Shown: positions 21,496 through 45,477 of the stretch, in pieces | How positions within the stretch are numbered: position 1 is the stretch's first letter | How the letters are laid out: every line of letters starts with the position of its first letter | Source: Bacteroidota bacterium | GTDB lineage: Bacteria; Bacteroidota; Ignavibacteria; UBA10030 | Assembly (NCBI GenBank): GCA_035286705.1 | Contig: DATECW010000088.1 | Location: 2,853-66,852, forward strand | Reading direction: 5' to 3' | DNA: 64,000 bases | Program-made: the position numbers and the translations under genes | The notes under the pieces: model-generated | Database searches by the model: none | Told to the model about the DNA's origin: nothing | Seen by the model: the letters and a program-made list of their open reading frames with translations, nothing else

Positions 21496-23706
21496 TCAGC
21501 TCAGGAGCGACTCCAGGAGGCGGATGACTTCGCCCACGTCCCTTACATTGAACCTCGCGTGACTATTCGTGACACCCACGCGAATGGAATATGCATCTTC
21601 GGGGAGAGCACAAAAGAGATCTTCGTCAGTCCAGTCATCCCCAATGGCAAGTACGAAAGCGCCGGGTTCCCTCACAAGCCAGTGCCCTGCCGCCACGCCT
21701 TTGTTGACGGCGGCCGGCCTGACCTCGACAACCCGGTGTCCGCGAAGTATCTGGAGGTCGGTATTGGCTGCAAGATTCAGGAGGCGATCTGTCAGCTCGG
21801 CAGCAAGGAACGCCGCCTGATCCGGATCGGACATCCGGTAATGCCAGACAATCGAGTGTTCCTTTTCCTCCACGAGGGCACCCGGTAATCGGTCAGCGTA
21901 CTGCTCGAGAATTGGAAGCAGCGACGCTTTCCAGTCGTTGTTGCCGCGTCCCAGGAATTCCCAGTCCTTGTCTCTTTCCTTCCGCCAGATTCCATGTTCG
22001 GCAACGAACTCCATGGGAATGTCGTGAAACCATGAAATCAGTGTCTTCCGGTCTCTTCCGCTGATCAACACAGTGTTATTTTTCTTGTCGTTTGCCAGCT
22101 TTCTCAGCAATGCCAGAATTGAGGCTGAGGGTGTCGCAAGGTCGGGAAGCCGTACAAGGGGGGTGAGGGTACCGTCATAGTCGAGAAAAATAAGTCTCTT
22201 GGCCGCTCTTTGATAAGCATCGCGCAGTGCTTTGGCAGCCGCCGCTTCAAGAAGCCTGGCGTTCAGTTTCTCCTGAATTGCTTTTGCAGAATTCAATTCA
22301 CTGATGAAGTCTCCGGCCCAGCGGGTCACGTCGTAGCGCCTGAGGCGGCTCTGCATCATCCGGTTTCGGCGAATCTGCTCTCCGCTCTCCATGGCGAGGG
22401 CTTCCTTCAGTGCGGCTGCAATCTCGGCACGATCATTCGGGTTGATAATAATCGCCTCGCCCAACTCCTTGGCCGCACCAGCCATCTCGCTCAAGATAAG
22501 GACTCCCGTCCCTTCGGAACGGCATGCAACGTATTCCTTCGCAATGAGGTTCATCCCATCGCGCAAGGGAGTCACCAGGGCAATGTCGGCAACACCGTAC
22601 AGGGCTACGAGTGAGGTGAGCGAAAGCTGCCTGTACTGATAGATGACCGGCATCCATCCTATCGTTCCGAATCTGCCATTGATTTTTCCGACGTACTCTT
22701 CCACCTGCCTTTTCATCTGCTCATACTCTGTTACCCCAATGCGGGAGGGAACAACAACCATCGTCAGGACAACCTTGCCGTGAACCTCAGGGGTCGTTTC
22801 CAACAATACCTCATAACCCTGCAGCCGATGGAGGATCCCCTTGGTGTAATCCAGGCGGTCAACCGACAGAATCACCCTTGCCCCGCCGAGAACTTTTCTC
22901 AGCTCGTCCTTTTCTGCCTCCGTTTGCGGGTCGCAACTTGCGGTTGTGAACCTCTGATAATCGATACCCATGGGGAGCGTGTCCGTCTTGACAATCCGGT
23001 TCGGAAGAGAGATTTGTCCCATTGAGTGATCATGACCAAGGATGCGCAGGACTGATTGGAGAAAGTGATGGGTGTATTCGTACGTATGAAAGCCGATCAG
23101 GTCAGCACCCAGAAGGCCTTCCAGGATCCCTCTTCTCCAATGAAGGGGGAGCAGCCGGAAGATCTCAAATGAAGGAAAAGGGATGTGGAGGAAAAATCCG
23201 ACGACTGCGCTGGGCATCCTTTTTCGCAACATGGCCGGCAGCAACATCAGGTGATAATCCTGAATCCAGACCATATCATCTTCCCGCATGATCTCTCCAA
23301 GGGTATCGCAGAACAAGGTATTGACCTTTTCATACTGCTCCCAATAGTCTTCCCGGTAAGCCGTCCAGGAGGGAAAATAGTGAAAAAGCGGCCATATGGT
23401 GCTGTTGCAGAAGCCCATGTAGAATTTCTCCATGTCGCTTTCGGACAGGAAGACCGGGCTTGCATGGTACTCAGCGAGCGCCCGTACGCGCACTGTCTCG
23501 CGATACGGTTCGTCCACCGTGGCACCGGGCCATCCGACCCAAAGATGGTCTTCACTCCTGGGGAAATGGTCCTTGTAGGAATCGAGGAAGGCACTGAGAC
23601 CCGTTGTGAGGCCTCCTGCGACCTCGCCAAAACGGACCTCCCCCTCGACAACGCTTGCCGAAAAAGGAAGACGATTTGAGACAATGATGAGTCGACGATG
23701 TTTCAC
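21496..23706 (-). CDS. otsA: Bifunctional trehalose-6-phosphate synthase / trehalose-6-phosphatase (OtsA-OtsB fusion; GT20 + HAD)
   Basis: N-terminal GT20 region (RLIIVSNRLP..., WVGWPG, HDYHLMLLPAMLRK). C-terminal HAD phosphatase with DXD motif (IFLDYDGTLTP). 736 aa. Confidence 0.85.
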   Translation of the reverse strand: MKHRRLIIVSNRLPFSASVVEGEVRFGEVAGGLTTGLSAFLDSYKDHFPRSEDHLWVGWPGATVDEPYRETVRVRALAEYHASPVFLSESDMEKFYMGFCNSTIWPLFHYFPSWTAYREDYWEQYEKVNTLFCDTLGEIMREDDMVWIQDYHLMLLPAMLRKRMPSAVVGFFLHIPFPSFEIFRLLPLHWRRGILEGLLGADLIGFHTYEYTHHFLQSVLRILGHDHSMGQISLPNRIVKTDTLPMGIDYQRFTTASCDPQTEAEKDELRKVLGGARVILSVDRLDYTKGILHRLQGYEVLLETTPEVHGKVVLTMVVVPSRIGVTEYEQMKRQVEEYVGKINGRFGTIGWMPVIYQYRQLSLTSLVALYGVADIALVTPLRDGMNLIAKEYVACRSEGTGVLILSEMAGAAKELGEAIIINPNDRAEIAAALKEALAMESGEQIRRNRMMQSRLRRYDVTRWAGDFISELNSAKAIQEKLNARLLEAAAAKALRDAYQRAAKRLIFLDYDGTLTPLVRLPDLATPSASILALLRKLANDKKNNTVLISGRDRKTLISWFHDIPMEFVAEHGIWRKERDKDWEFLGRGNNDWKASLLPILEQYADRLPGALVEEKEHSIVWHYRMSDPDQAAFLAAELTDRLLNLAANTDLQILRGHRVVEVRPAAVNKGVAAGHWLVREPGAFVLAIGDDWTDEDLFCALPEDAYSIRVGVTNSHARFNVRDVGEVIRLLESLLS

Positions 23707-23855
23707 TGGGACCGTGGCCGGTATTTGTAAAGCTGATTCTAGTGGCGAGTGTCAGAGATTCCTTTAATAAGTCGCCAGCAGCTTTCGGACGAATTCTGAC
23801 TGTTTTGAGCAATCTTAGGGAACGAATTTATTCAAGGAACTTGCAGCTCGAGACA

Positions 23856-25073
23856 CTAGAGGGAAACGACATCCCCCTGATGGAACAAGGAAATAAACAG
23901 CAGCAGATAATCTCTGATGTGGCGGGTGATGAGAAAATTGTTCTTGATGTGTTCCCTGCCGTTCAAACCCAGCTTGCGTGCATATTCAGGCTCGTTGATC
24001 ATCTGCTTGATCCAGTATGCTGTTCCCTCAACGGAATGAGTGAGAATTCCCGAATACTTGTGGGCAATTTGCAGGGGAATTCCCCCCACCGCAGAGGCTA
24101 TTGTCGGCCTTCCCTTCCACAACGCCTCCGAGACAGTCAGCCCAAAACCCTCTTTCAGGGATTTCTGCAGTACTACCGTTGACCCGCGTTGAAGCGCGTT
24201 GATTTCGAGATCGCTCCCAGGCGGCAGGAAAAGCGAGAAAATGTTCTTGTCACCTGCAGCCTCGTCTTCGACCTGTTTCATGATCGCAGGGCCCTCCGGA
24301 TCGTCCGTAGCACCACCGCCTGCAAGCACCAACTGAACATCCAGGTGTTTTTTGACAAGCTTGTATGCTTTGATAACGCCAAGAGGATCTTTGAGATAAT
24401 CGAAACGGGAGATCTGGGTGACGACCGGCAGGGAACGGTCAATATGAAACCGCTCAAACACAGAATCAATGTAGCTTTCGGGCAGTTCCTTGTTCTTATC
24501 GCTCAAAGGGTCAATGGACGGAGCAATCAACACCTGGGGAATTGGAAGACTTCGGGCAAATGCCGGAGCGGAAAAAACGGCGACATCGTACCGCTTGATA
24601 TATTGTTCCAGGAAACTCCAGATCTTCCTGTCGGGCCTGGAGAAGTCGATATGACAACGCCACATCCATTTTCGTCCTTCGTGTTTGTCCTGGTCGATAA
24701 GGGCAACCGGCTGGGGATCGTGAACAAACACAAGCCCTGCGGACTGGAGCACCTGCGCATTATCCCGGTTGACCTGCAGAAACCACTCGTACTCATCGTC
24801 GCTCACCGTCACCGGCACTCCGTGAAGCCCGTTGTGGAATTTCTTCGTTATCACAAAGAATTTCTCGTCGCCTTTAATGACATCCCACCGGGCCTGGACA
24901 CCCAGCTGATTGAGGAGCGGTATCATTCGGGAAAGTATCTCCGCGACACCGCCTCCCACGGCAGTCGAGTTAATATTCTGCACCTGCTTCCCTTCCAGAT
25001 GCCTCGCCAGCATGCGGAGCTCATCAACGGTCGACTGTCCCACGATTGGGATGTATTCTTCAAGCTGTACCAT
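23856..25073 (-). CDS. treT: Trehalose glycosyltransferring synthase TreT (GT4)
   Basis: Multiple blocks match archaeal/Thermotoga TreT: NSTAVGGGVAEIL, VHDPQPVALI, WRCHIDFS, PSIDPLSDKN, VTQISRFD, DDPEG, KEGFGLTVSEALWKG, AVGGI, NNFLITRHIRDYL. Confidence 0.8.
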   Translation of the reverse strand: MVQLEEYIPIVGQSTVDELRMLARHLEGKQVQNINSTAVGGGVAEILSRMIPLLNQLGVQARWDVIKGDEKFFVITKKFHNGLHGVPVTVSDDEYEWFLQVNRDNAQVLQSAGLVFVHDPQPVALIDQDKHEGRKWMWRCHIDFSRPDRKIWSFLEQYIKRYDVAVFSAPAFARSLPIPQVLIAPSIDPLSDKNKELPESYIDSVFERFHIDRSLPVVTQISRFDYLKDPLGVIKAYKLVKKHLDVQLVLAGGGATDDPEGPAIMKQVEDEAAGDKNIFSLFLPPGSDLEINALQRGSTVVLQKSLKEGFGLTVSEALWKGRPTIASAVGGIPLQIAHKYSGILTHSVEGTAYWIKQMINEPEYARKLGLNGREHIKNNFLITRHIRDYLLLFISLFHQGDVVSL

Positions 25074-25701
25074 GCACCTGCACCAATTGTATGATCATGC
25101 TTCGAAGCCCTTCGAGCGTATAGGTATACGGGTCAAGGCGAGCAACCATGTCCGCAAGCTCCATCTTTCCAAGATCACGAAACCAGCGTGAGAAATCGTT
25201 TTCCCCTTTTTCCAGTCTCAATTTGGCCTCAAAGATATGATAGTACAGCGAGCCGTGGCTAATCAGCTTCAACGATTCCACAAAATCCTGAAGCGAATGC
25301 GCTACGTACGGTGTGCGGAGGACAAAGGTTCTCGCCGCCATGAAGTGAAATTCCTGGCCCGCTGGAGCCGAGGGCATACGCTCCGTGCTGTCCATGTGTG
25401 ATTGCAGAATGTCAACGAAGACATTCCGAAGCTCTTCCAGAGTGTGGAACTGTATGATATCGACACTGGAGATTCTCTCCGCCAGCGATCCTTCGTTCAG
25501 GACATCAGTGATCCAGTACGCAAAATCGTTGGGGGGCTCCGGAGAAAGAAAGTGGTGCTGCCGGAGATACCGATGCGTGTGGTAATAAATCGAAGATTCC
25601 GGGACCCCCTGGACCCCTGCGAGCAATTCAGAGAGGTTTCGCGCCTTGATTCCCAGGAGGATCGATTGATCCAGTTTCGTATGGAAATAGAATTCGTCCA
25701 A
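25060..25701 (-). CDS. Conserved hypothetical protein co-transcribed with treT
   Basis: 213-aa soluble ORF overlapping treT by 14 nt. No recognised motif. Confidence 0.4.
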   Translation of the reverse strand: MDEFYFHTKLDQSILLGIKARNLSELLAGVQGVPESSIYYHTHRYLRQHHFLSPEPPNDFAYWITDVLNEGSLAERISSVDIIQFHTLEELRNVFVDILQSHMDSTERMPSAPAGQEFHFMAARTFVLRTPYVAHSLQDFVESLKLISHGSLYYHIFEAKLRLEKGENDFSRWFRDLGKMELADMVARLDPYTYTLEGLRSMIIQLVQVHGTA

Positions 25702-28166: not shown

Positions 28167-30524
28167 TCAGGGGGTTGGTTCATTCTGGCGGGCTTCCTGG
28201 ACGCGGCGGAGAATTGTGAGAAAGAATCCTACTACGAGGGTCACCGTCCCCATCCACACGAGGTTGATCATCGGCTTGATGCTGGCTTCGACCACAAGGG
28301 TCTCAGCCTTCCGCCCGGCTATGGGATCGTCGGGAAGCTTTACCGAGAGCTGAACCTTCGACTTCGAGGGGTCTTCCCTGTCTGGCAAAATTCGGGAAAG
28401 TGTGAAAACATAATCCCCCACTCCCTTCAGTGCATAGGGAACTGGAACGGGCTCCATCGTTCCCTTTTCACCTTTGATAGACACAGTCAGCTTCTTCCCC
28501 GTGCCGGCTTTCCCCTCTTTTACTAACAGACCGGCGCTGATGGTGAAATCGCGACCTTCAACCATCGCCATCCGATCGACGTTCGTGAAATCCACAAATT
28601 CAACCTGAAGATCCCCTATTTCGGCAGTCTGGCCCTTCTGAATTTCAACCGATTTCTCCTGTGCGGCGGCGGGCTCCTCCAGGGAAAGCGGGGCAAGATA
28701 GATGTCCTTGCTCAGAAGATTCATCAAGTCGGGATGACGCATGAGCCCTTTCGTGAACTCGCTGTAGTACATCACAGGAGACACAGAATGCCGGCGGCCG
28801 TCTCTTTCGAGATCAACACGGAATGCATATTTCTCCTGGTCAATCGGGGCGTAGCCGACATACGTCATGGTATATCCAAGAGCTTCGACCGGCTTGTTTC
28901 GCTCAAGCGAGATAGTTTCTTGCTCATCGTACCGTTCCGAGGTAATAAATCCCAGACAAAGAAGAGCAAGACCGATATGAGCGATCGAACCCCCGACGAA
29001 CTTTGGATTTCCCACATAGATGGCATACCCAACCTGCGTGTTGGCAACGAGAGAGAACACTGCACAGAAGGCAAAAAGGAGAATCAGGACTTCTTCCGTC
29101 GCAAATATGGCCATGAAGACGGTAGCAAGAGCTGCAACGACGAGAGACGGCAGCATGCCGCGCAGAACCGACCCGCCTTGTGAATGTCGCCACCAGAGGA
29201 GCTGACCCAATCCCGACAGAAAAGCAATAGCGATGCCAAGTGGAAGGTTCGTTTTCACATAGTACGACATCTCTACAGCGGAAGCTTTGCCTTTGAGAAT
29301 TGTTGTAATGATTGGCGAAGAGGTTCCAATGGTGACAAAAATCGCAACCGCAGCAAGTGCAAACGCTCCGAGGAACAGCGCAAACTCTCGTGAGAAAAAT
29401 GAATGCTGAACCGGAATCCTGGGCATTTCGCGTGAACGCACGTAGAGCAAGCCGAAACCGAGTCCGGCAAAGAAGATGATGCAACCCATCAACAACCAAT
29501 ATACCCACATCCCCGGATCGACAAACGAATGCACCGATGTTTCTCCCAGGACGCCGCTCCTCGTGAGGAACGTACTATACAGGACGGCAAGGAATGTGAG
29601 GATGCTGAGGGCGAAGTTCGTTTTTTGATAGGAACCGTTTTTTCGCTGCACAAGGGTCGTATGAATCGTTGCAACACACACAAGCCATGGTACAAGAGAC
29701 GAATTCTCGACCGGATCCCATCCCCAGAACCCGCCCCATCCCAGTGTTTCGTACGCCCAATAGCCGCCCAGAATAATACCAGTGCCGAGAATCATTGCGC
29801 CAAACACAAGCCATGGAGTCGCTACCTTGATCCAGGATGTGTAGTCCCTCTTCATGAGTCCCGCTATGGCATGTGCATACGGTACTGCCATCGACGAGAA
29901 TCCGATGAACAGAATTTGCGGATGAATCACCATCCAGTAATTCTGGAGGAGGGGATTCAGTCCCTTTCCTTCTACGGGAAACTGAGCCCAAATATTTCGC
30001 GCCGCATCGAGGACAACGATATTCCCCATCTCCGCTGGAAGAGGCCCTGTATGAATGAGGTCGCTGGGAAATTTATCCCAGATGAACTCAAACGGATTCT
30101 TGACGATCAGCATGAGCAAGAGAAACGAGAGAATGAGCGAGTAGACGCTCATAACTTCCGGCTCGTAGCTCTTCCTCATGGAGTACTGCATCAAGAAAAC
30201 GCCGATGAGGGCCGTATAGAGCGCCCAGAGTGTAAAACTTCCCTCCTGCCCGGCATAGAACGTCGATATCAGCAGAGGCAAAGAGAGATTCGTCGAACTG
30301 TAGTTCCAGACGTACGAGTACTGAAACTGGTGAGTCAAGATGAGGTAAAGCAGGATGGCAGAAGCCGAAAGAAGAGAAATTGTTGCCAGATGATAGCTGT
30401 TCCGCGCCAACCCGAGAAGGAATGGCTGGTTGGTCTTGTACACCCGGTAATACATGAAAGCGCCTGCCAGAGCGGCGAGCAAGGCAAGCTTGATGAGAAC
30501 GGCACCCACAATACCGATCGTCAT
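28167..30524 (-). CDS. ccmF: Cytochrome c-type biogenesis protein CcmF (System I heme lyase)
   Basis: 785 aa polytopic. WWD motif WGGFWGWDPVENSSLVPWL. Conserved His-containing loops. C-terminal periplasmic domain with a final TM helix. Confidence 0.8.
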   Translation of the reverse strand: MTIGIVGAVLIKLALLAALAGAFMYYRVYKTNQPFLLGLARNSYHLATISLLSASAILLYLILTHQFQYSYVWNYSSTNLSLPLLISTFYAGQEGSFTLWALYTALIGVFLMQYSMRKSYEPEVMSVYSLILSFLLLMLIVKNPFEFIWDKFPSDLIHTGPLPAEMGNIVVLDAARNIWAQFPVEGKGLNPLLQNYWMVIHPQILFIGFSSMAVPYAHAIAGLMKRDYTSWIKVATPWLVFGAMILGTGIILGGYWAYETLGWGGFWGWDPVENSSLVPWLVCVATIHTTLVQRKNGSYQKTNFALSILTFLAVLYSTFLTRSGVLGETSVHSFVDPGMWVYWLLMGCIIFFAGLGFGLLYVRSREMPRIPVQHSFFSREFALFLGAFALAAVAIFVTIGTSSPIITTILKGKASAVEMSYYVKTNLPLGIAIAFLSGLGQLLWWRHSQGGSVLRGMLPSLVVAALATVFMAIFATEEVLILLFAFCAVFSLVANTQVGYAIYVGNPKFVGGSIAHIGLALLCLGFITSERYDEQETISLERNKPVEALGYTMTYVGYAPIDQEKYAFRVDLERDGRRHSVSPVMYYSEFTKGLMRHPDLMNLLSKDIYLAPLSLEEPAAAQEKSVEIQKGQTAEIGDLQVEFVDFTNVDRMAMVEGRDFTISAGLLVKEGKAGTGKKLTVSIKGEKGTMEPVPVPYALKGVGDYVFTLSRILPDREDPSKSKVQLSVKLPDDPIAGRKAETLVVEASIKPMINLVWMGTVTLVVGFFLTILRRVQEARQNEPTP

Positions 30525-30539
30525 TCAGAATTGTCCTCC

Positions 30540-30929
30540 TTATAAAGTCTTTTTTACGGCTTCAGCGTCTCCTTCATATTTTGACGGGCACTTTGTCAGT
30601 ACCTCCTTCGCATGAAAATGATCCCCGCTGAACGTGCCCTTTGCCACAACACTCGTGGCAATCTCGAAATTGTTCGGCTTGGCACCTTCAAGAACGACTT
30701 TCATGACCATCTGGTTGTCGTCCTTCATGTAAAACATAAACTGCGCCTTGTCCGGGTCGAACTTGCTGTCCATATCCTTCATCCATTCCCCCTTCACCTG
30801 AACTTTCTTGCCGGTCTTCTCGGCCGTCGCAAAGTCGGCATACTCCACATTCGACTCAAAAAAATTCACAGCACCCAGTACAAGTCCGACGACAATCACA
30901 GCTGCAGCGACAATAACCTTCCCGTTCAT
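30540..30929 (-). CDS. ccmE: Cytochrome c maturation heme chaperone CcmE, CxxxY variant
   Basis: N-terminal TM anchor, OB-fold-sized body. C-terminus LTKCPSKYEG aligns with E. coli LAKHDENYTP, so the heme-binding His is replaced by Cys. Confidence 0.7.
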   Translation of the reverse strand: MNGKVIVAAAVIVVGLVLGAVNFFESNVEYADFATAEKTGKKVQVKGEWMKDMDSKFDPDKAQFMFYMKDDNQMVMKVVLEGAKPNNFEIATSVVAKGTFSGDHFHAKEVLTKCPSKYEGDAEAVKKTL

Positions 30930-30937
30930 GGCGTTCT

Positions 30938-31075
30938 CTATCCCTTCTTCATTGATTGTTCCAGTTCTTTCACTTTCCTGTCGAGCCGCAACAAATAGAA
31001 TACGATCCCTGCCCAGATGAGCAGAATGATGGTCATGACAATAAACAATTGATTGTTCGCAAAAAATTCGAGCAT
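30938..31075 (-). CDS. ccmD: Small single-TM protein, CcmD-like (not in ORF track, 45 aa)
   Basis: Reverse-strand reading gives MLEFFANNQLFIVMTIILLIWAGIVFYLLRLDRKVKELEQSMKKG*. It sits exactly between ccmC and ccmE, with start codon adjacent to the ccmC stop. Confidence 0.5.
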   Translation of the reverse strand: MLEFFANNQLFIVMTIILLIWAGIVFYLLRLDRKVKELEQSMKKG

Positions 31076-31786
31076 TTATCCCTCTTCGTTCTGAAGTATC
31101 CGGTGATAGTCCAATCGGGCAACCCTCAGGCGCAGATTAAAAAGCCAGATGTAGAGCAGATTGAATCCGACAAGTCCAAGATAAAAAAGGACCCGCATGT
31201 TTGCCGCCATCATTTTCCCCTCGAACAACGGGCCCGAGCCTTCATCCCCTTTTGCCCCTGGATGAAGCCCTCCCACCATGCGCGGCATGACGAAAATAAA
31301 GAACGGTACGGTCAATCCCGCAATGATCGCGTACACAGCCGACAGTGCGGCCCTTTTTTCTTCCGAATCAATCGCCGAGCGCAGCGCAAAATAGGCGCCG
31401 TAGATCAGAAGAAGAACAAAAATTGATGTCTGTCGCGGATCCCAATTCCAGAAGGACCCCCAATTGAATTTCGCCCACAGCGCTCCCGTTACGGTCGCCA
31501 GAATGCAGAACAGGAGTCCCAATCCCGCAGACGTCACTGATTTCAGATCGTCGTCGATGTTTCTTTTTCGCAAATAACGAATGCCATAAAATGTGGAAAC
31601 AAGGAAGGCCAGTACCGTTGTCCATGCTGTGGGGACATGGAAGAAAATATTGCGTGCCTTTTGTTCCAGTCCCGGGATTTCAGGGAATTCCAGCCAGCTG
31701 GTCGGGGAAGGAACGAGAGGAATCGCCAGTCCTGCGACCAGGACAAATGTGATGATAAGAATGGATCCCAGTTTAACGAATTTCAT
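31076..31786 (-). CDS. ccmC: Heme exporter protein CcmC
   Basis: Six TM helices. WWD domain FNWGSFWNWDPRQTS. 236 aa. Confidence 0.85.
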   Translation of the reverse strand: MKFVKLGSILIITFVLVAGLAIPLVPSPTSWLEFPEIPGLEQKARNIFFHVPTAWTTVLAFLVSTFYGIRYLRKRNIDDDLKSVTSAGLGLLFCILATVTGALWAKFNWGSFWNWDPRQTSIFVLLLIYGAYFALRSAIDSEEKRAALSAVYAIIAGLTVPFFIFVMPRMVGGLHPGAKGDEGSGPLFEGKMMAANMRVLFYLGLVGFNLLYIWLFNLRLRVARLDYHRILQNEEG

Positions 31787-31834
31787 CGAGATTTGAGAAG
31801 TGGATATTTACAGGTGCAGCCTACCGCATTCAAT

Positions 31835-31980
31835 TTCACACCTCTGTGGCACTCTGTGTAATGTTTCTTTCCCTTGGGTTATTTCACAGAGAGACACAGA
31901 GCAAGAAAAGAGAGTTCCACAGAGAAAAGCTTCCCTCTGTGTCCCTCTGTGACTTCTCTGTGACACACTGTGTAATATTC
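31835..31980. repeat. Intergenic palindromic repeat element (CACAGAG x3 / CTCTGTG x3 arms plus a CTCTGTG..CTGTGTAAT copy) inserted between ccmB and ccmC
   Basis: 31885-31925 is cacagagagacacagagcaagaaaagagagttccacagag. Its reverse-complement-like arm at 31935-31976 is ctctgtgtccctctgtgacttctctgtgacacactgtgtaat. A further cctctgtggcactctgtgtaatg sits at 31841-31863. The ctctgtgtcc core recurs at 45406. Confidence 0.6.
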
Positions 31981-31989
31981 TCTTTGAAA

Positions 31990-32661
31990 CTAATCCTTCC
32001 AAACATAGTCGAAGAGCAGGTACGAACCCGCGGTGATGACCATAACATAGGAGATTAACACCAGAAAATCTACAGCAGCTTCACCGAATCGCTCACCATC
32101 GAGTGCTTTCGCGGTCGCATTCATCACGCTCATCAGCAGAATGATCAAGATCGGAAACGAAAGAACCGGATATAAAGTTCCTCGTGTGTTCGCTTTTGCG
32201 ATGATCGCCGCGATGATGGTTGCAGCCGATGCCAATCCCAGGCTTCCAAGAACGACAGTCACGAGGAAAACATCGAGCGACTGGATCGAGAAGCCCGGAA
32301 AAGCCACTGTATACACAATGGTAACACCCAGGACAAGTGACAGGGTCAACAGGACGTTGAACAGCAGTTTCCCAAAATATACGGAGGATGGAATCGCCAC
32401 CAATTGAAGCGTAAGCGCGGTGCCACGTTCTTCTTCACTCACAAAGGCTCTCGAAAGTCCGGACATAGCCGAAAAGAAAACAACAACCCAGAACATTCCC
32501 GCGAGCACCGTACTCGAGGGCTGGTCTCCTCGCAAAGCAAAGAGGATGATTGAAACCGTGGTGAGAACAAACATGAGGAGGGCATTCAGAGCATACCGCG
32601 TCCGAAGCTCGGACTGGACGTCCTTTGTCACAATGGCATAAATGCTCTTCCACGTATTCAT
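31990..32661 (-). CDS. ccmB: Heme exporter permease CcmB
   Basis: 223 aa, six TM helices, positioned between ccmA and ccmC. Confidence 0.75.
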   Translation of the reverse strand: MNTWKSIYAIVTKDVQSELRTRYALNALLMFVLTTVSIILFALRGDQPSSTVLAGMFWVVVFFSAMSGLSRAFVSEEERGTALTLQLVAIPSSVYFGKLLFNVLLTLSLVLGVTIVYTVAFPGFSIQSLDVFLVTVVLGSLGLASAATIIAAIIAKANTRGTLYPVLSFPILIILLMSVMNATAKALDGERFGEAAVDFLVLISYVMVITAGSYLLFDYVWKD

Positions 32662-32679
32662 GATCTGTCGATCACTTTG

Positions 32680-33306
32680 TCATACTCCGACATGAATTCT
32701 TTTCTTGCACCAGGATGCCTCCCGCTCATCGTTCGTGGCTATGATTGTGAGAGTGTCCGTCTGCAGGCTTTGCACCGTATCATGCACGACCCTGCATCCA
32801 TCTTCATCCAGGTTCGCCGTCGGCTCATCGAGCATGACGATGGAGGGGGCATGCGCTAATGCCACAATGTACTTCAATCGCTGCTTCATTCCGGATGAGA
32901 ATGTCCGCACAACGTCATCGCGTCGTTCCCAGAGTCCATAGGTTCTGAAAATCTTCTCGATATCCGCGGGCGCGGGCGTCGAGTTGTTTCGTATCCTTAA
33001 CAAGATCAGGAGATTTTCGAGCGCGGTAAATTCATCATAAAGCTGGAGGTACGGGGACACAAGCCCTATCGTCGGCCGCAACCCGTCCAGATCGACGGCT
33101 GCTCCTGAGAGCTCGTATTCCACTTTTCCTTTTGTGGGACTCAGCAATCCCGCCAGGACCTTGATCAATGTGGATTTTCCGGATCCGTTCTTTCCCGTGA
33201 CGGCAAGCGATTCGCCGGAGCTGAGGGAAAAAGTGATGTCTTTCAACACCGTTCTCCTGTTGAAATTCTTCCCTATTCCTGCTGCACGAATTGTTACGAG
33301 GTTCAT
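32680..33306 (-). CDS. ccmA: Heme ABC exporter ATP-binding protein CcmA
   Basis: Walker A GKNGSGKST, signature FSSGMKQRL, Walker B IVMLDEPTANLD. About 208 aa. Start moved to MNLVTI. Confidence 0.8.
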   Translation of the reverse strand: MNLVTIRAAGIGKNFNRRTVLKDITFSLSSGESLAVTGKNGSGKSTLIKVLAGLLSPTKGKVEYELSGAAVDLDGLRPTIGLVSPYLQLYDEFTALENLLILLRIRNNSTPAPADIEKIFRTYGLWERRDDVVRTFSSGMKQRLKYIVALAHAPSIVMLDEPTANLDEDGCRVVHDTVQSLQTDTLTIIATNDEREASWCKKRIHVGV

Positions 33307-34991
33307 CGGATGACCGCCAGTTTCCATCGGTATTCCCGCTGTCCCGTTTTCAGATAGATGAAATGAACTCCTGATGACACTTTTCCGGCAAAGTCCCTTG
33401 TGGGAACCGTCACAGTCGCCTGCCCGAAAACACTTGCCACGGGATACGAACCGGAGAACACGAGATCGAATGTTGCAGTCAGAATGAATACGCTGGCGGG
33501 GCCGGACAAAGAGCCTTCAGCCGGCAGAGCAAGAGTTGTCGCATCCTGAATTCTCAACGGATTAGGGGAAGGAACCGGCCTGCCGTTCAGACCCGATTCG
33601 GAGGCCGTTCCTATATAAAGAGTCCGCCAATCTTCTGCAGGTTCCCCCTCAAATCCCATGACAAACCCATTCAAGAGTCTCTGGATTGCTCCGTTGGTCT
33701 CAGACCGAGAGAGAGTCAGTCGGATACCCGAACGCTGGCCGGGGTTTGTGTAAGCCATCTCATGATTGACATTCGAAACCTCGGCAAGAATTGTATCTCC
33801 CGGGACCGTAAAGGCATAGTATTGTACTGACAAGGGATACGCCTCACCCTGGATGAACATTGACGATCCGCTGAACGATGCAGTCACGTTCGGCTGAATC
33901 ATCGGGAACAGATGCCCTTCTTCGTAGTATCGCAACGTGTCTGCGCGCTGGCCTGTGAACATGTTCCACGCCGAAAATTCGGCAAATGCCGTTCTGAGGC
34001 TGCTACCGGCATTCTTAAGCACCACATCCATACTCTTCAAGGCGGGCTGCAAACGCATTTCCTCCCAAATCCGCCTGATGACGTCTTTTCCGAATCGCTT
34101 CTCCAGGTATTGGTTCCAGATCGATCGTTCATACCCTGAGTTTGCAAGCGTGTACGTAGCAAATGCATGGGATTGCCCCGACGGGTCTTTGAAGCTCTGA
34201 AGAAATCGCGGAAGATCAAAGTAGTAGTCATTGATATCATCGTAGACCACTTCCTCAATCCACACAGAAGTCAATTCATAGAAAAAAAAGTCGTTGTCCG
34301 GAACCGTGTTCCAGATACCGTATGATCCAATTTGAAGGGCATGGTGAAACTCATGAGCAGCAGTGACGCGCGCGCCGTCTAATCCTTTCGTCCTTTGAGC
34401 AAAAAAATCATTGTCGATTTCTATGAATGTGACGTAACGATCCCGAACTCCGCTCTCGAGCTGTGTTTCCCCATCCCAGGATGTGAATCCGAACAGGTCG
34501 GACGGCTGATCCCGGATGTACACGTCGTACTCAGCTCCGCCGCCGCTCCCTCCGTCCGAAGGCGGCGGGCTGAAACCCAGAAGTTCAATCTCCACATTCC
34601 AGCATTGATCGAAGATCGCTCCCACGGAATCGACATATTCCTCGTGCGAATTGAGAACAGGATTCAACGGAGTACCGGCGAGCATCCGCGGAAGGTTCAC
34701 GCCTGATGTATCGTAGTGAATTCGGAATCGCCCCGACGGACTGAGCCGGCTTGTGTGCAGGTTCGGCCTCAGGAGTATTTGTCCAATTGTCGTTCTGACA
34801 TTCTCCGGGAATTCCTGAATCCTCCGGCGGGCTTCAAAGATGAGCGTTGTCCCGCATTTCCCGCCGAAATCCTCCCTTTTCCCAATCTGGACTTCACGAA
34901 GGATTTCCCGAAGAACCTCCATCGGTTTCTGCTGCGCCTCCGCTGCAACGGCCATGATCAAAGAGAGTACGGCAAAGACCGCAACCCGCAT
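33303..34991 (-). CDS. Secreted putative zinc metallopeptidase with T9SS C-terminal sorting domain
   Basis: Signal peptide MRVAVFAVLSLIMAVAAEAQQ. HExxH motif in AAHEFHHALQIGSYG. C-terminal SGVHFIYLKTGQREYRWKLAVIR matches the Por_Secre_tail pattern. Start moved to the internal Met. Confidence 0.6.
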   Translation of the reverse strand: MRVAVFAVLSLIMAVAAEAQQKPMEVLREILREVQIGKREDFGGKCGTTLIFEARRRIQEFPENVRTTIGQILLRPNLHTSRLSPSGRFRIHYDTSGVNLPRMLAGTPLNPVLNSHEEYVDSVGAIFDQCWNVEIELLGFSPPPSDGGSGGGAEYDVYIRDQPSDLFGFTSWDGETQLESGVRDRYVTFIEIDNDFFAQRTKGLDGARVTAAHEFHHALQIGSYGIWNTVPDNDFFFYELTSVWIEEVVYDDINDYYFDLPRFLQSFKDPSGQSHAFATYTLANSGYERSIWNQYLEKRFGKDVIRRIWEEMRLQPALKSMDVVLKNAGSSLRTAFAEFSAWNMFTGQRADTLRYYEEGHLFPMIQPNVTASFSGSSMFIQGEAYPLSVQYYAFTVPGDTILAEVSNVNHEMAYTNPGQRSGIRLTLSRSETNGAIQRLLNGFVMGFEGEPAEDWRTLYIGTASESGLNGRPVPSPNPLRIQDATTLALPAEGSLSGPASVFILTATFDLVFSGSYPVASVFGQATVTVPTRDFAGKVSSGVHFIYLKTGQREYRWKLAVIR

Positions 34992-35172
34992 TCCGGATAC
35001 TCTGCGTATCCACGTTTTCTTACATGGGGCCGGGAATGCCTGCCGTTCATCGATGAGGGGGCGATCAGAAAGCAAAAGACCGTTTGATAGACATCGCGTG
35101 GGAAAATGGATACAACGGTGCAGGCAGGGGTGCTCCGGCATGGACGTCCATCCATCGGGAGAGGGGGGCAAT

Positions 35173-35652
35173 TCAGGCATTCTTCTTGCCGCGATGTTTC
35201 AACCGCGACGCTCTTCGTCGGGCTGCATCTGCATACCGGCGCTTTTCTTCCTTTGTTTCAGGCCGAATAGGCGGAACTGCCACAGGATTGCCCGAGTCAT
35301 CGATAGCCACGAATGTCAGATAAGCCGTGTTGGCATGCTTGCGTTCGCCAGTCAGCAGATTCTCCCCAATAACCTTCACCCCTACTTCGACCGACGTGTG
35401 AAAAGCTCTGTTCACCGATCCCTGCAGGATTACCACCTCTCCCTCCTTGATGGGGTGCAGGAAATTGAGCTCGTCAACTGATGCAGTCACGCATACCCTG
35501 TTCGTGTGGCGAAAGGCGGCAATCGCGGCACAAATATCCATCCAATGCATCAATTGGCCTCCCAGAAGATTCCCCAACCTGTTGGTGTGGTTGGGCAGCA
35601 CCATTTCGGTCATCTGCACTTGGGATTCACGTATTGTCTTCTTTTTTCTCAT
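35173..35652 (-). CDS. Acyl-CoA thioesterase (hotdog fold, YciA-like)
   Basis: MVLPNHTNRLGNLLGGQLMHWMD...ASVDELNFLHPIKEGEVV is the typical YciA/4HBT pattern. Confidence 0.75.
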   Translation of the reverse strand: MRKKKTIRESQVQMTEMVLPNHTNRLGNLLGGQLMHWMDICAAIAAFRHTNRVCVTASVDELNFLHPIKEGEVVILQGSVNRAFHTSVEVGVKVIGENLLTGERKHANTAYLTFVAIDDSGNPVAVPPIRPETKEEKRRYADAARRRASRLKHRGKKNA

Positions 35653-45402: not shown

Positions 45403-45466
45403 GAGCACTTGGCTTTTCTCTGTGTCCGCTGTGGTAACATTGTTCACCACAGAGCGCACAGAGAAG
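45403..45466. repeat. Second copy of the CTCTGTG/CACAGAG palindromic element, in the panD upstream region
   Basis: ttctctgtgtccgctgtggtaacattgttcaccacagagcgcacagagaag is an imperfect inverted repeat, with arms about 20 bp. It shares ctctgtgtcc and cacagag..cacagag with the ccmB-ccmC element. Confidence 0.55.
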
Positions 45467-45477
45467 GCACGCCCGCC

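Follow-up and report, generated by a model that had tools for sequence, protein, structure and literature searches.

The System I* operon for cytochrome c maturation in Desulfovibrio desulfuricans and D. vulgaris was reportedly described by Allen et al. in 2006 and Goddard et al. in 2010. System I* is a variant of System I defined by a CcmE protein with Cys as the heme-binding residue (Cys-CcmE), and CPSKY is its majority motif (PMC3601427). The variant has been named and experimentally tested (PMC3601427; PMC9084895). The Cys-CcmE of Desulfovibrio binds heme covalently (PMC3601427), and in Methanosarcina acetivorans the Cys of CcmE is needed for heme attachment (Gupta et al., 2022, PMC9084895). 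In 2006, System I* was first defined partly by the absence of CcmH. This absence is not universal, as CcmH is encoded by approximately one third of the bacteria with Cys-CcmE (Stevens et al., 2011, PMC3601427). In E. coli, cytochrome c was matured by the Desulfovibrio operon without CcmH or CcmG (PMC3601427).

Here, a ccm cluster was analyzed in a 64-kb stretch of DNA, hereinafter referred to as the window, from an Ignavibacteria bacterium. The cluster is very probably a functional System I* operon for cytochrome c maturation. This explanation is favoured because the genes are intact, the residues of CcmA, CcmC, CcmE, and CcmF are conserved, the KCPSKY motif is invariant, and synteny is kept.

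Gene content and organization of the ccm cluster

The ccmABCDEF cluster (positions 28167–33306, minus strand) consists of six intact, co-oriented, tightly spaced ORFs. Pfam and NCBIfam matches were judged against the curated cut-offs of each family model. The ABC ATPase subunit is encoded by ccmA (32680–33306, 208 aa; PF00005, ABC_tran, 97.8 bits, cut-off 25) and the ABC membrane subunit by ccmB (31990–32661, 223 aa; PF03379, CcmB, 54.8 bits, cut-off 24.9). These genes are followed by ccmC for the heme-delivery protein (31076–31786, 236 aa; PF01578, Cytochrom_C_asm, 84.2 bits, cut-off 29.9), ccmD (30938–31075, 45 aa), ccmE for the membrane-anchored Cys-type heme chaperone (30540–30929, 129 aa; PF03100, CcmE, 56.2 bits, cut-off 24.6), and ccmF for the heme lyase (28167–30524, 785 aa). 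CcmF matches both Cytochrom_C_asm (PF01578, 97.2 bits, cut-off 29.9) and CcmF_C (PF16327, 87 bits, cut-off 28.7). The original prediction of a System I ccmABC(D)EF operon is thus borne out, with all six ORFs at the predicted places and Pfam scores above the cut-offs. For ccmA, ccmB, ccmC, ccmE, and ccmF, every score against the NCBIfam equivalog models was below the trusted cut-off (for instance, 99.1 bits for CcmA against TIGR01189, cut-off 131.6, and 103 bits for CcmC against TIGR01191), because these sequences diverge from the proteobacterial seeds.

The ccmABCDEF order is kept across the Ignavibacteria loci, and ccmF is unlinked from ccmABCDE in several relatives (loci L019, L021–L023, L025, and others). 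In the window, ccmE and ccmF are separated by a 15-nt spacer with a Shine-Dalgarno sequence, and a cdaA-like gene in convergent orientation lies downstream of ccmF. The upstream neighbour of ccmA (33303–35180, minus strand) encodes a putative HExxH metalloprotease of the MXAN_6640 family (NF045524, 183.8 bits, cut-off 140). Its stop abuts the ccmA start, and in 61 of 75 loci a gene of this family is the immediate upstream neighbour of ccmA. Translation of the gene probably begins at the Met at 34991, with a signal-peptide-like sequence. This neighbouring gene is at most a candidate member of the Ccm system.

CcmA, CcmB, and CcmC proteins

The CcmABC module for heme delivery and release is present, with the ABC ATPase, CcmB, and CcmC, and its motifs are intact except for the H-loop His of CcmA. 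The start of ccmA at 33306 is favoured over an alternative upstream ATG at 33327 because the CcmA proteins of relatives have 207–208 aa. Walker A, signature, and Walker B motifs were found in CcmA. In the alignment with E. coli CcmA (His186) and ABCA3, Asn192 occupies the position of the H-loop His, and Asn was found there in all 75 relatives; the replacement is thus lineage-wide. In some ABC transporters, loss of the H-loop His strongly lowers ATPase activity. The only PDB match for CcmB was E. coli CcmB (7f02_B). CcmC contains the WWD motif WGSFWNWDPRQTS and both heme-ligand His residues (FFHVP and GLHPG); His60, the WWD motif, and His184 are conserved in the alignment with E. coli CcmC (7f02_C).

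CcmE and the CPSKY motif

The C-terminus of CcmE is ...AKEVLTKCPSKYEGDAEAVKKTL, containing LTKCPSKYEG. In the phmmer alignment, AKEVLTKCPSKYE of this protein was paired with AKEVLAKHDENYT of E. coli CcmE (8ce8_E), placing Cys114 opposite His130 and Tyr118 opposite Tyr134. The CPSKY codons (C114–Y118) occupy positions 30576–30590 on the minus strand, with Cys114 encoded by TGC at 30588–30590. With D. vulgaris CcmE (2kct_A), LTKCPSKY was aligned to MTKCPLEH, the overall match being weak (E=0.0028). The LEH residues of 2kct presumably originate from the purification tag. Both alignments of CcmE C-termini have Cys, not His, at the heme-binding position of this protein, in agreement with the predicted His-to-Cys replacement in a CxxxY-type CcmE. 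Canonical System I, with His-CcmE and CcmABCDEFGH, was ruled out by this Cys and by the convergent cdaA-like gene after ccmF.

The KCPSKY motif was found in 120 of 120 close CcmE homologues and in all 140 full-length representatives of the 50%-identity clusters retrieved. The columns of C114, P115, S116, and Y118 show no variation in the CcmE alignment (A2), and CcmE with LTKCPSKY is encoded by at least 556 GTDB species genomes. The assignment to the archaeal/Desulfovibrio-type variant therefore holds, CPSKY being the hallmark of System I*, but the description of this variant as unusual is overstated given these numbers and is true only relative to E. coli-type textbooks.

CcmD_alt, the 45-aa gene between ccmC and ccmE

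The 45-aa ORF on the minus strand in the ccmC–ccmE gap matches two family models, PF20077 (CcmD_alt; 35.2 bits, cut-off 23.5, E=1.3e-8) and TIGR04391 (30.7 bits, cut-off 24, E=2.3e-7). In 83 of 86 related loci, a CcmD_alt gene separates ccmC from ccmE; these genes represent 79 distinct sequences, in which Trp and Glu are invariant and the TM helix is conserved. The protein has one TM helix, with LFIVMTIILLIWAGIVFYLL as the single hydrophobic stretch, followed by a charged C-terminal helix, and its ATG is directly 3' of the ccmC stop codon. In all 82 pairwise comparisons pN was lower than pS (pS 0.62 and pN 0.06 against L001); judged by these values, ccmD is under purifying selection. Taken on these sequence features, the ORF is a real gene, as had been proposed from its position, and its conservation in relatives could be confirmed. 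It is indeed absent from the ORF track, because the track has a minimum length, but cannot be called unannotated in general: on two contigs near-identical to the window (L207 and L208), public pipelines call a 45–49-aa gene with a PF20077 match.

No match of CcmD_alt to the canonical CcmD model PF04995 was found in Pfam. Likewise, a PDB search with a profile of 28 CcmD_alt sequences did not retrieve E. coli CcmD (7f02_D), and hhalign against the verified E. coli CcmD sequence gave a probability of ~1%, with no detectable similarity. The name CcmD is therefore based on position, size, topology, and the curated family model rather than on similarity to E. coli CcmD, and functional equivalence to canonical CcmD is inferred from position and topology.

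CcmF protein

CcmF contains the WWD motif GWGGFWGWDPVENSS and four conserved His residues. We take these to be the two periplasmic and two TM His known by E. coli numbering as H173, H261, H303, and H491. The protein aligns with CcmF of Thermus thermophilus (6zmq, E=2.7e-73), the pairs vIHPq/vHPv, tIHTt/fLHTa, sVHSf/sVHAf, and iAHIg/vVHFa being aligned and GWGGFWGWDPVEN conserved. The median length of CcmF in relatives is ~780 aa. The C-terminal periplasmic β-domain, located before the last TM helix, is enlarged. In the AF2 model, the last 257 aa (pLDDT 86) are all-β with one helix, and no significant structural match of the enlarged domain was found in the PDB. In Ignavibacteria, CcmF has been detected in the proteome of Melioribacter roseus (PMC5492636).

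Repeat element between ccmB and ccmC

The spacer between ccmB and ccmC (31787–31989) contains CACAGAG/CTCTGTG inverted repeat units; four of the five matches to the pattern CACAGAGN{1,8}CACAGAG in the window are located inside it. The spacer spans 203 bp, whereas the median ccmB–ccmC gap of 80 relatives is 2 bp and the closest relatives have a gap of 40 bp. In a near-identical strain, the spacer is 53 bp longer, corresponding to one 53-bp unit. Spacers of 190–390 bp were found at this place in five other lineages, and elements of the CACAGAG/CTCTGTG type in at least 120 metagenome contigs. The predicted RNA fold of the spacer is a long imperfect hairpin (-62.5 kcal/mol, z=-2.4). These comparisons identify the spacer as a palindromic repeat element inserted into the operon rather than as a conserved piece of it. 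The insert is a strain-level addition, and all reading frames are intact. Being rich in hairpins, it could alter the expression of ccmAB relative to ccmCDEF.

Alternative explanations

The original prediction that ccmG and ccmH are lacking in the cluster stands, as confirmed by the flanking genes and a motif scan of the 64 kb. Neither these genes nor a thioredoxin-like gene was found in the cluster or the window, and none of the likely genes of the window has a CxxCH, WCxxC, or LRCxxC motif. The six core proteins are probably sufficient without CcmH and CcmG, by analogy with the described systems. This independence is an inference, since the analysis covers 64 kb and CcmH is present in about a third of System I* bacteria. 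The same two points, together with the unlinked ccmF of several relatives, by which Ccm genes can scatter in this lineage, would fit a System I* with CcmH rather than a streamlined one, in which unlinked ccmH-like and ccmG/TlpA/CcdA-like genes encode obligatory partners. We consider this possible but rather unlikely: the window has no ORF with the CcmH-like LRCxxC or the thioredoxin-like WCxxC, no such genes were found when 10-kb flanks with Pfam annotation were inspected in relatives, and the Desulfovibrio and Methanosarcina systems function without CcmH and CcmG (PMC3601427, PMC9084895). As for CcmD, the shortness of the ORF and its undetectable similarity to the E. coli protein would agree with a chance ORF in a system that lacks CcmD, as in archaea. 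This is extremely improbable and was refuted by the conservation analysis, given the two independent family models with exceeded cut-offs, the constant position in 83 of the 86 loci with invariant Trp and Glu and a retained TM helix, the low pN in all 82 pairs, and the start coupled to the ccmC stop.

It is also very unlikely that the operon is undergoing inactivation, with the insert terminating or destabilizing the transcript so that ccmCDEF are poorly expressed. The unusual length of the spacer relative to the 80 relatives, its stable hairpin, and the 53-bp variation between near-identical strains would suit such a process, but no terminator-like hairpin with a T-run was found by scanning the spacer, none of the six ORFs is disrupted, and purifying selection acts on ccmD. 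Moreover, at least two public assemblies of independent origin carry the same insert together with intact downstream genes, and the long spacers of five other lineages are evidently tolerated. Finally, rather than a general synthetase, CcmF might be a dedicated NrfE-type lyase that serves a non-standard heme motif (for example, CXXCK in NrfA), as its best NCBIfam match is TIGR03145 (NrfE, 237.4 bits), ahead of TIGR00353 (CcmF/NrfE, 235.8 bits). Both scores, however, fall far short of the cut-offs (927 and 569 bits, respectively) and are nearly equal, so they do not discriminate. In addition, ccmF is joined to ccmABCDE through the short ccmE–ccmF spacer with its Shine-Dalgarno sequence, nrfA, nrfF, and nrfG were not found nearby, and no protein containing CxxCK or CxxCH is encoded in the window. 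The NrfE-type function is thus highly improbable.

The following observations count against a functional System I* operon: CcmA without the canonical H-loop His, CcmD_alt without detectable homology to canonical CcmD, the stable hairpin-rich insert inside the operon, and the NCBIfam equivalog scores below the trusted cut-offs. A more far-reaching version of the functional reading, which we regard as doubtful, is that Ignavibacteria have a distinct System I* sub-variant, in which an ABC engine with an Asn H-loop is combined with a CcmF β-domain that replaces CcmH in apocytochrome handling, and the MXAN_6640-type HExxH protein is a possible lineage-specific accessory.

Proposed mechanism and significance

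For the functional System I* operon, the following mechanism is proposed; its residues come from the sequence analyzed here and its steps from work on E. coli, Desulfovibrio, and Methanosarcina. CcmC would hold heme b on the periplasmic side by its WWD loop and two His and hand it to membrane-anchored CcmE. There, a vinyl group of heme may be bound covalently by Cys114 of CPSKY in a thioether-type adduct, and Tyr118 may serve as the iron ligand. The CcmA2B2 ABC module, together with single-TM CcmD(alt), would mediate the ATP-driven release of holo-CcmE. CcmF would then accept heme from CcmE through its WWD loop and two periplasmic His, with the two TM His holding a reducing heme b, and ligate it to the CXXCH cysteines of Sec-secreted apocytochromes. 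If needed, thiols could be reduced by unlinked generic thioredoxin-like proteins.

System I* is already known and is standard throughout Ignavibacteria, not a rarity. Ignavibacteria have abundant multiheme cytochromes, which, as seen from this result, would be matured by a Cys-CcmE System I*. This bacterial class thereby joins the taxa that the reviews consulted list explicitly for System I*, namely δ-proteobacteria, Chloroflexi, Firmicutes, and archaea. The locus also illustrates how ccmD is hidden by short-ORF filters; the gene is essential in bacteria where this has been tested. Beyond correct annotation, the value of the locus is small, and two points are of specialist interest only: the invariant CcmA H-loop Asn and the enlarged periplasmic domain of CcmF in a cluster without CcmH.

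Comparison with known systems

In common with E. coli System I (CcmABCDEFGH; 7F02, 8CE8), this locus has the six core proteins, identically ordered, a CcmE of the same fold family, and the Tyr of the xxxY motif. CcmC and CcmF also keep the WWD motifs and His ligands, as aligned with E. coli CcmC and with T. thermophilus CcmF (6ZMQ), respectively. The differences from E. coli are Cys114 in place of CcmE His130, Asn192 in place of CcmA His186, a CcmD that is not detectably homologous, a CcmF longer by ~125–140 aa, and the lack of ccmG and ccmH downstream.

The CcmABCEF system of M. acetivorans (Gupta et al., 2022, PMC9084895) has the same CxxxY-type CcmE, the same heme-handling motifs in CcmC and CcmF, and, like this cluster, no CcmH or CcmI. 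In contrast, archaeal systems lack CcmD and their genes are usually scattered, whereas CcmD_alt and a single operon were found here; CcmF of M. acetivorans is split into CcmF1 and CcmF2, whereas here it is a single 785-aa protein.

Desulfovibrio System I* (CcmE structure 2KCT) also has a bacterial ccmABCDEF operon without ccmH and ccmG, a small CcmD, and a CPSKY-type CcmE with Cys for His. It belongs to another phylum, and the similarity between the CcmE proteins is weak. CcmD_alt, the ~780-aa CcmF, and the CcmA H-loop Asn can be set beside it as features established on the Ignavibacteria side only. Among the features of System I* itself, Cys-CcmE, the CcmABC module, and a CcmF with the WWD motif and four His were found in this locus.

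Organization of the ccm Gene Cluster

Six co-oriented ORFs were found on the minus strand of the window between positions 28167 and 33327: ccmA (32680-33306), ccmB (31990-32661), ccmC (31076-31786), a 45-aa ORF in the place of ccmD (30938-31075), ccmE (30540-30929), and ccmF (28167-30524). A longer version of ccmA begins at 33327; the start at 33306 was preferred because the homologues are 207-208 aa long. All six proteins score above the Pfam gathering cut-offs, the ccmA product with ABC_tran, CcmB with CcmB, CcmC with Cytochrom_C_asm, the 45-aa protein with CcmD_alt, CcmE with CcmE, and CcmF with both Cytochrom_C_asm and CcmF_C. Thus, the original prediction of a System I ccmABC(D)EF operon was borne out. 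For ccmA, B, C, E, and F, matches to NCBIfam equivalog models were likewise obtained, all below the trusted cut-offs, which reflects divergence from the proteobacterial seeds; the CcmD_alt model TIGR04391 scored above its NCBIfam cut-off.

The genes are tightly packed. The ATG of ccmD directly follows the stop codon of ccmC, ccmD and ccmE are separated by 8 nt, ccmE and ccmF by 15 nt containing AAGGAGG, and ccmA and ccmB by 18 nt. The sole departure from this spacing is the 203-bp spacer between ccmB and ccmC. A scan of the operon for promoters and terminators, in which Bacteroidota-type promoters are not modelled, found nothing above shuffle expectation.

Heme-Binding Motif of CcmE

The C-terminus of CcmE, AKEVLTKCPSKYEGDAEAVKKTL, was paired by phmmer against PDB sequences with AKEVLAKHDENYT of E. 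coli CcmE (8ce8_E). This alignment places Cys114 opposite the heme-binding His130 and Tyr118 opposite Tyr134 of the E. coli protein, and TKCP is aligned with TKCP of the Cys-type CcmE of D. vulgaris (2kct). The heme-binding position is therefore occupied by Cys and not by His, as had been read from the sequence when CcmE was classified as CxxxY-type.

The same reading had called this variant unusual, which does not hold: the motif is invariant or nearly universal in the homologues and is known in the literature as part of System I*. LTKCPSKY was found in all 120 close homologues among the matches listed (67-91% identity), the named ones being Ignavibacteria, Ignavibacteriales, or 'Bacteroidota' MAGs. 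When 1.84 billion representatives of 50%-identity clusters were searched exhaustively with phmmer, 724 matches were obtained. Among the best 150 of these, extending down to about 30% identity, 140 sequences reach the C-terminus; all 140 have C-[PA]-[ST]-x-Y, which in 132 of them is CPSKY. Residues C114, P115, S116, and Y118 are invariant columns in a 49-sequence CcmE alignment. When GTDB was scanned at one genome for each species, with a narrow CcmE alignment as the query, CcmE with LTKCPSKY was found to be encoded in at least 556 genomes, those listed all being Ignavibacteria-type MAGs. The breadth of CPSKY-type CcmE outside Ignavibacteria is based on the anonymous 50%-cluster representatives and on the literature.

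The Small ORF Between ccmC and ccmE

The 45-aa ORF is a genuine gene and belongs to the CcmD_alt family (PF20077, E=1.3e-8; TIGR04391, E=2.3e-7). By tblastn, 83 of the 86 related loci have ccmD between ccmC and ccmE; of the other three, one ends just before ccmE and two are differently arranged. The small ORF is thus conserved in relatives. Across 79 distinct CcmD_alt sequences the common pattern is M-x-E-F-L-x-x-N-Q-L-Y-I-V-L...I-W-x-G...Y-L-x-R-L-D-x-K...L-E, with an invariant Trp and an invariant Glu. Nei-Gojobori proportions gave pN below pS for ccmD in all 82 ungapped pairs (medians 0.29 vs. 0.755). Of the original claim of an unannotated ccmD, the gene itself stands, being conserved and matched to a family, but not its unannotated status: public gene callers report it, with a PF20077 match, on L207 and L208, two public contigs nearly identical to the window. 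Its absence from annotation is thus explained by the minimum length imposed on the ORF list.

No similarity of CcmD_alt to canonical CcmD was detected, either with a 28-sequence profile against PDB or by hhalign against E. coli CcmD, whose sequence was checked against 7f02_D. Position, size, and topology are thus the grounds for the name ccmD. In one Ignavibacteria MAG (locus L062, 3215-3727), one 173-aa ORF, uninterrupted by any stop codon, spans both ccmD and ccmE; the two may be naturally fused, or the assembly may be wrong here.

CcmA, CcmC, and CcmF

CcmC shares His60, the WWD motif, and His184 with its E. coli counterpart. CcmF matches CcmF of T. thermophilus (6zmq, E=2.7e-73) with conservation of the WWD motif and four histidines. 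At 785 aa (median in relatives about 780), it is approximately 125 aa longer than the T. thermophilus protein, the extra length lying mainly after residue ~608 (window 28167-28700), in the periplasmic region that precedes the final TM helix. AF2 modelled the last 257 aa with confidence (pLDDT 86) as an all-β fold plus one helix. A Foldseek search with this model gave no significant PDB fold match (best E=0.028, TM < 0.2), so no function was assigned to the domain; a homologue search with it returned fragments only.

The Walker A, signature, and Walker B motifs are all present in CcmA. At the position of the catalytic H-loop His of ABC ATPases, CcmA has Asn192 ('IIATND', codon 32731-32733), which is aligned with His186 of E. 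coli CcmA ('ILTTHQ') and with the His of both ABCA3 NBDs. This Asn was found in CcmA of all 75 related Ignavibacteria loci.

Gene Neighborhood

The absence of ccmG and ccmH from the cluster, noted in the original prediction, was confirmed: the neighbors are other genes, and the CxxCH, WCxxC, and LRCxxC motifs were found in none of the approximately 65 likely genes of the 64-kb window. A convergent gene for a CdaA-like diadenylate cyclase lies downstream of ccmF. Upstream of ccmA on the minus strand is a gene for a putative HExxH metalloprotease of the MXAN_6640 family (33303-35180; NF045524; motif AAHEFHH), which has a signal-peptide-like start at an internal Met (34991) and a stop codon that abuts the ccmA start. 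Genes for a 4HBT thioesterase, BamD/YfiO, and a PGA_cap protein are also found upstream of the operon. Further out are genes for a nitrilase-family protein, response regulators, a PAS/GAF histidine kinase, trehalose synthesis, and an RND efflux system. The trehalose synthesis cluster (21496-25701, minus strand), about 3 kb from the ccm operon, encodes a fused OtsA-OtsB (Glyco_transf_20 and Trehalose_PPase), a TreT-like glycosyltransferase, and a DUF5752 protein.

The HExxH gene directly precedes ccmA in 61 of 75 related loci, and the homologues returned by a search with its protein all belong to the same class. Adjacency to ccmA alone is no argument for a role as a Ccm-specific accessory, since the entire block upstream of the operon (PGA_cap-BamD/YfiO-4HBT thioesterase-...) shows equal synteny across the class.

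In 13 related loci (L019, L021, L022, L023, L025, L037, L041, L046, L055, L060, L074, L075, and L083), ccmABCDE is not followed by ccmF; in L023, ccmE is followed by unrelated genes including a DNA methylase. In these relatives ccmF must therefore be encoded elsewhere, so some members of the class have a split operon.

Repeat Element in the ccmB-ccmC Spacer

The 203-bp gap between ccmB and ccmC (31787-31989), compared with a median of 2 bp in 80 relatives, is filled by a palindromic repeat element. In the closest relatives (90% protein identity), the gap is 40 bp long and its sequence is unrelated. The insert consists of CACAGAG/CTCTGTG units in inverted orientation with a period of ~10 bp and folds into a long imperfect hairpin (-62.5 kcal/mol, z=-2.4); a smaller copy is located near 45415-45470. 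An Rfam search of the spacer found no family, only sub-threshold miRNA-like hairpin noise, and a literature word search for the motif was uninformative.

Both L207 and L208 encode an upstream protein 100% identical to that of the window, and over the aligned ccmB-ccmC stretch L208 equals the window base for base and L207 nearly so. The spacer is 203 bp in the window and L208 (3891-4093) and 256 bp in L207 (7104-7359), which has one additional 53-bp hairpin unit; the repeat is therefore polymorphic at the strain level. The pattern CTCTGTGNNNCTCTGTG...CACAGAGNNNCACAGAG was found in at least 120 metagenome contigs (L087-L206) from termite gut, sediment, peat, and soil, consistently with arms of 2-4 units, a period of ~10 bp, and an A/T-rich loop. 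We regard the insert as a REP/MITE-like palindromic element that landed by chance in the operon, all ORFs of which are intact despite it. Long ccmB-ccmC gaps in other lineages, of ~380-390 bp (loci L070, L072, and L086) and ~190 bp (L064 and L068), lack the CACAGAG doublet motif and may contain either an additional small gene or a different repeat.

Comparison with Known System I*

Replacement of the CcmE His by Cys has been described in archaea and some bacteria, including Desulfovibrio, under the name System I*, with CPSKY as the majority motif and covalent heme binding by the Desulfovibrio CcmE (Stevens et al., 2011, PMC3601427). [quoted passage not shown] CcmH is present all the same in about one third of the bacteria with Cys-type CcmE (Stevens et al., 2011, PMC3601427). 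In the CxxxY-type system of M. acetivorans, the Cys is needed for heme attachment and CcmABCEF suffices (Gupta et al., 2022, PMC9084895).

The Ignavibacteria version could be a distinct sub-variant in which CcmA with an H-loop Asn and the enlarged periplasmic domain of CcmF compensate for the missing CcmH and CcmG. We consider this improbable. As judged from its sequence, the operon carries the defining features of System I*; the original finding was real and rightly interpreted, and the operon represents this known system in its ordinary state.
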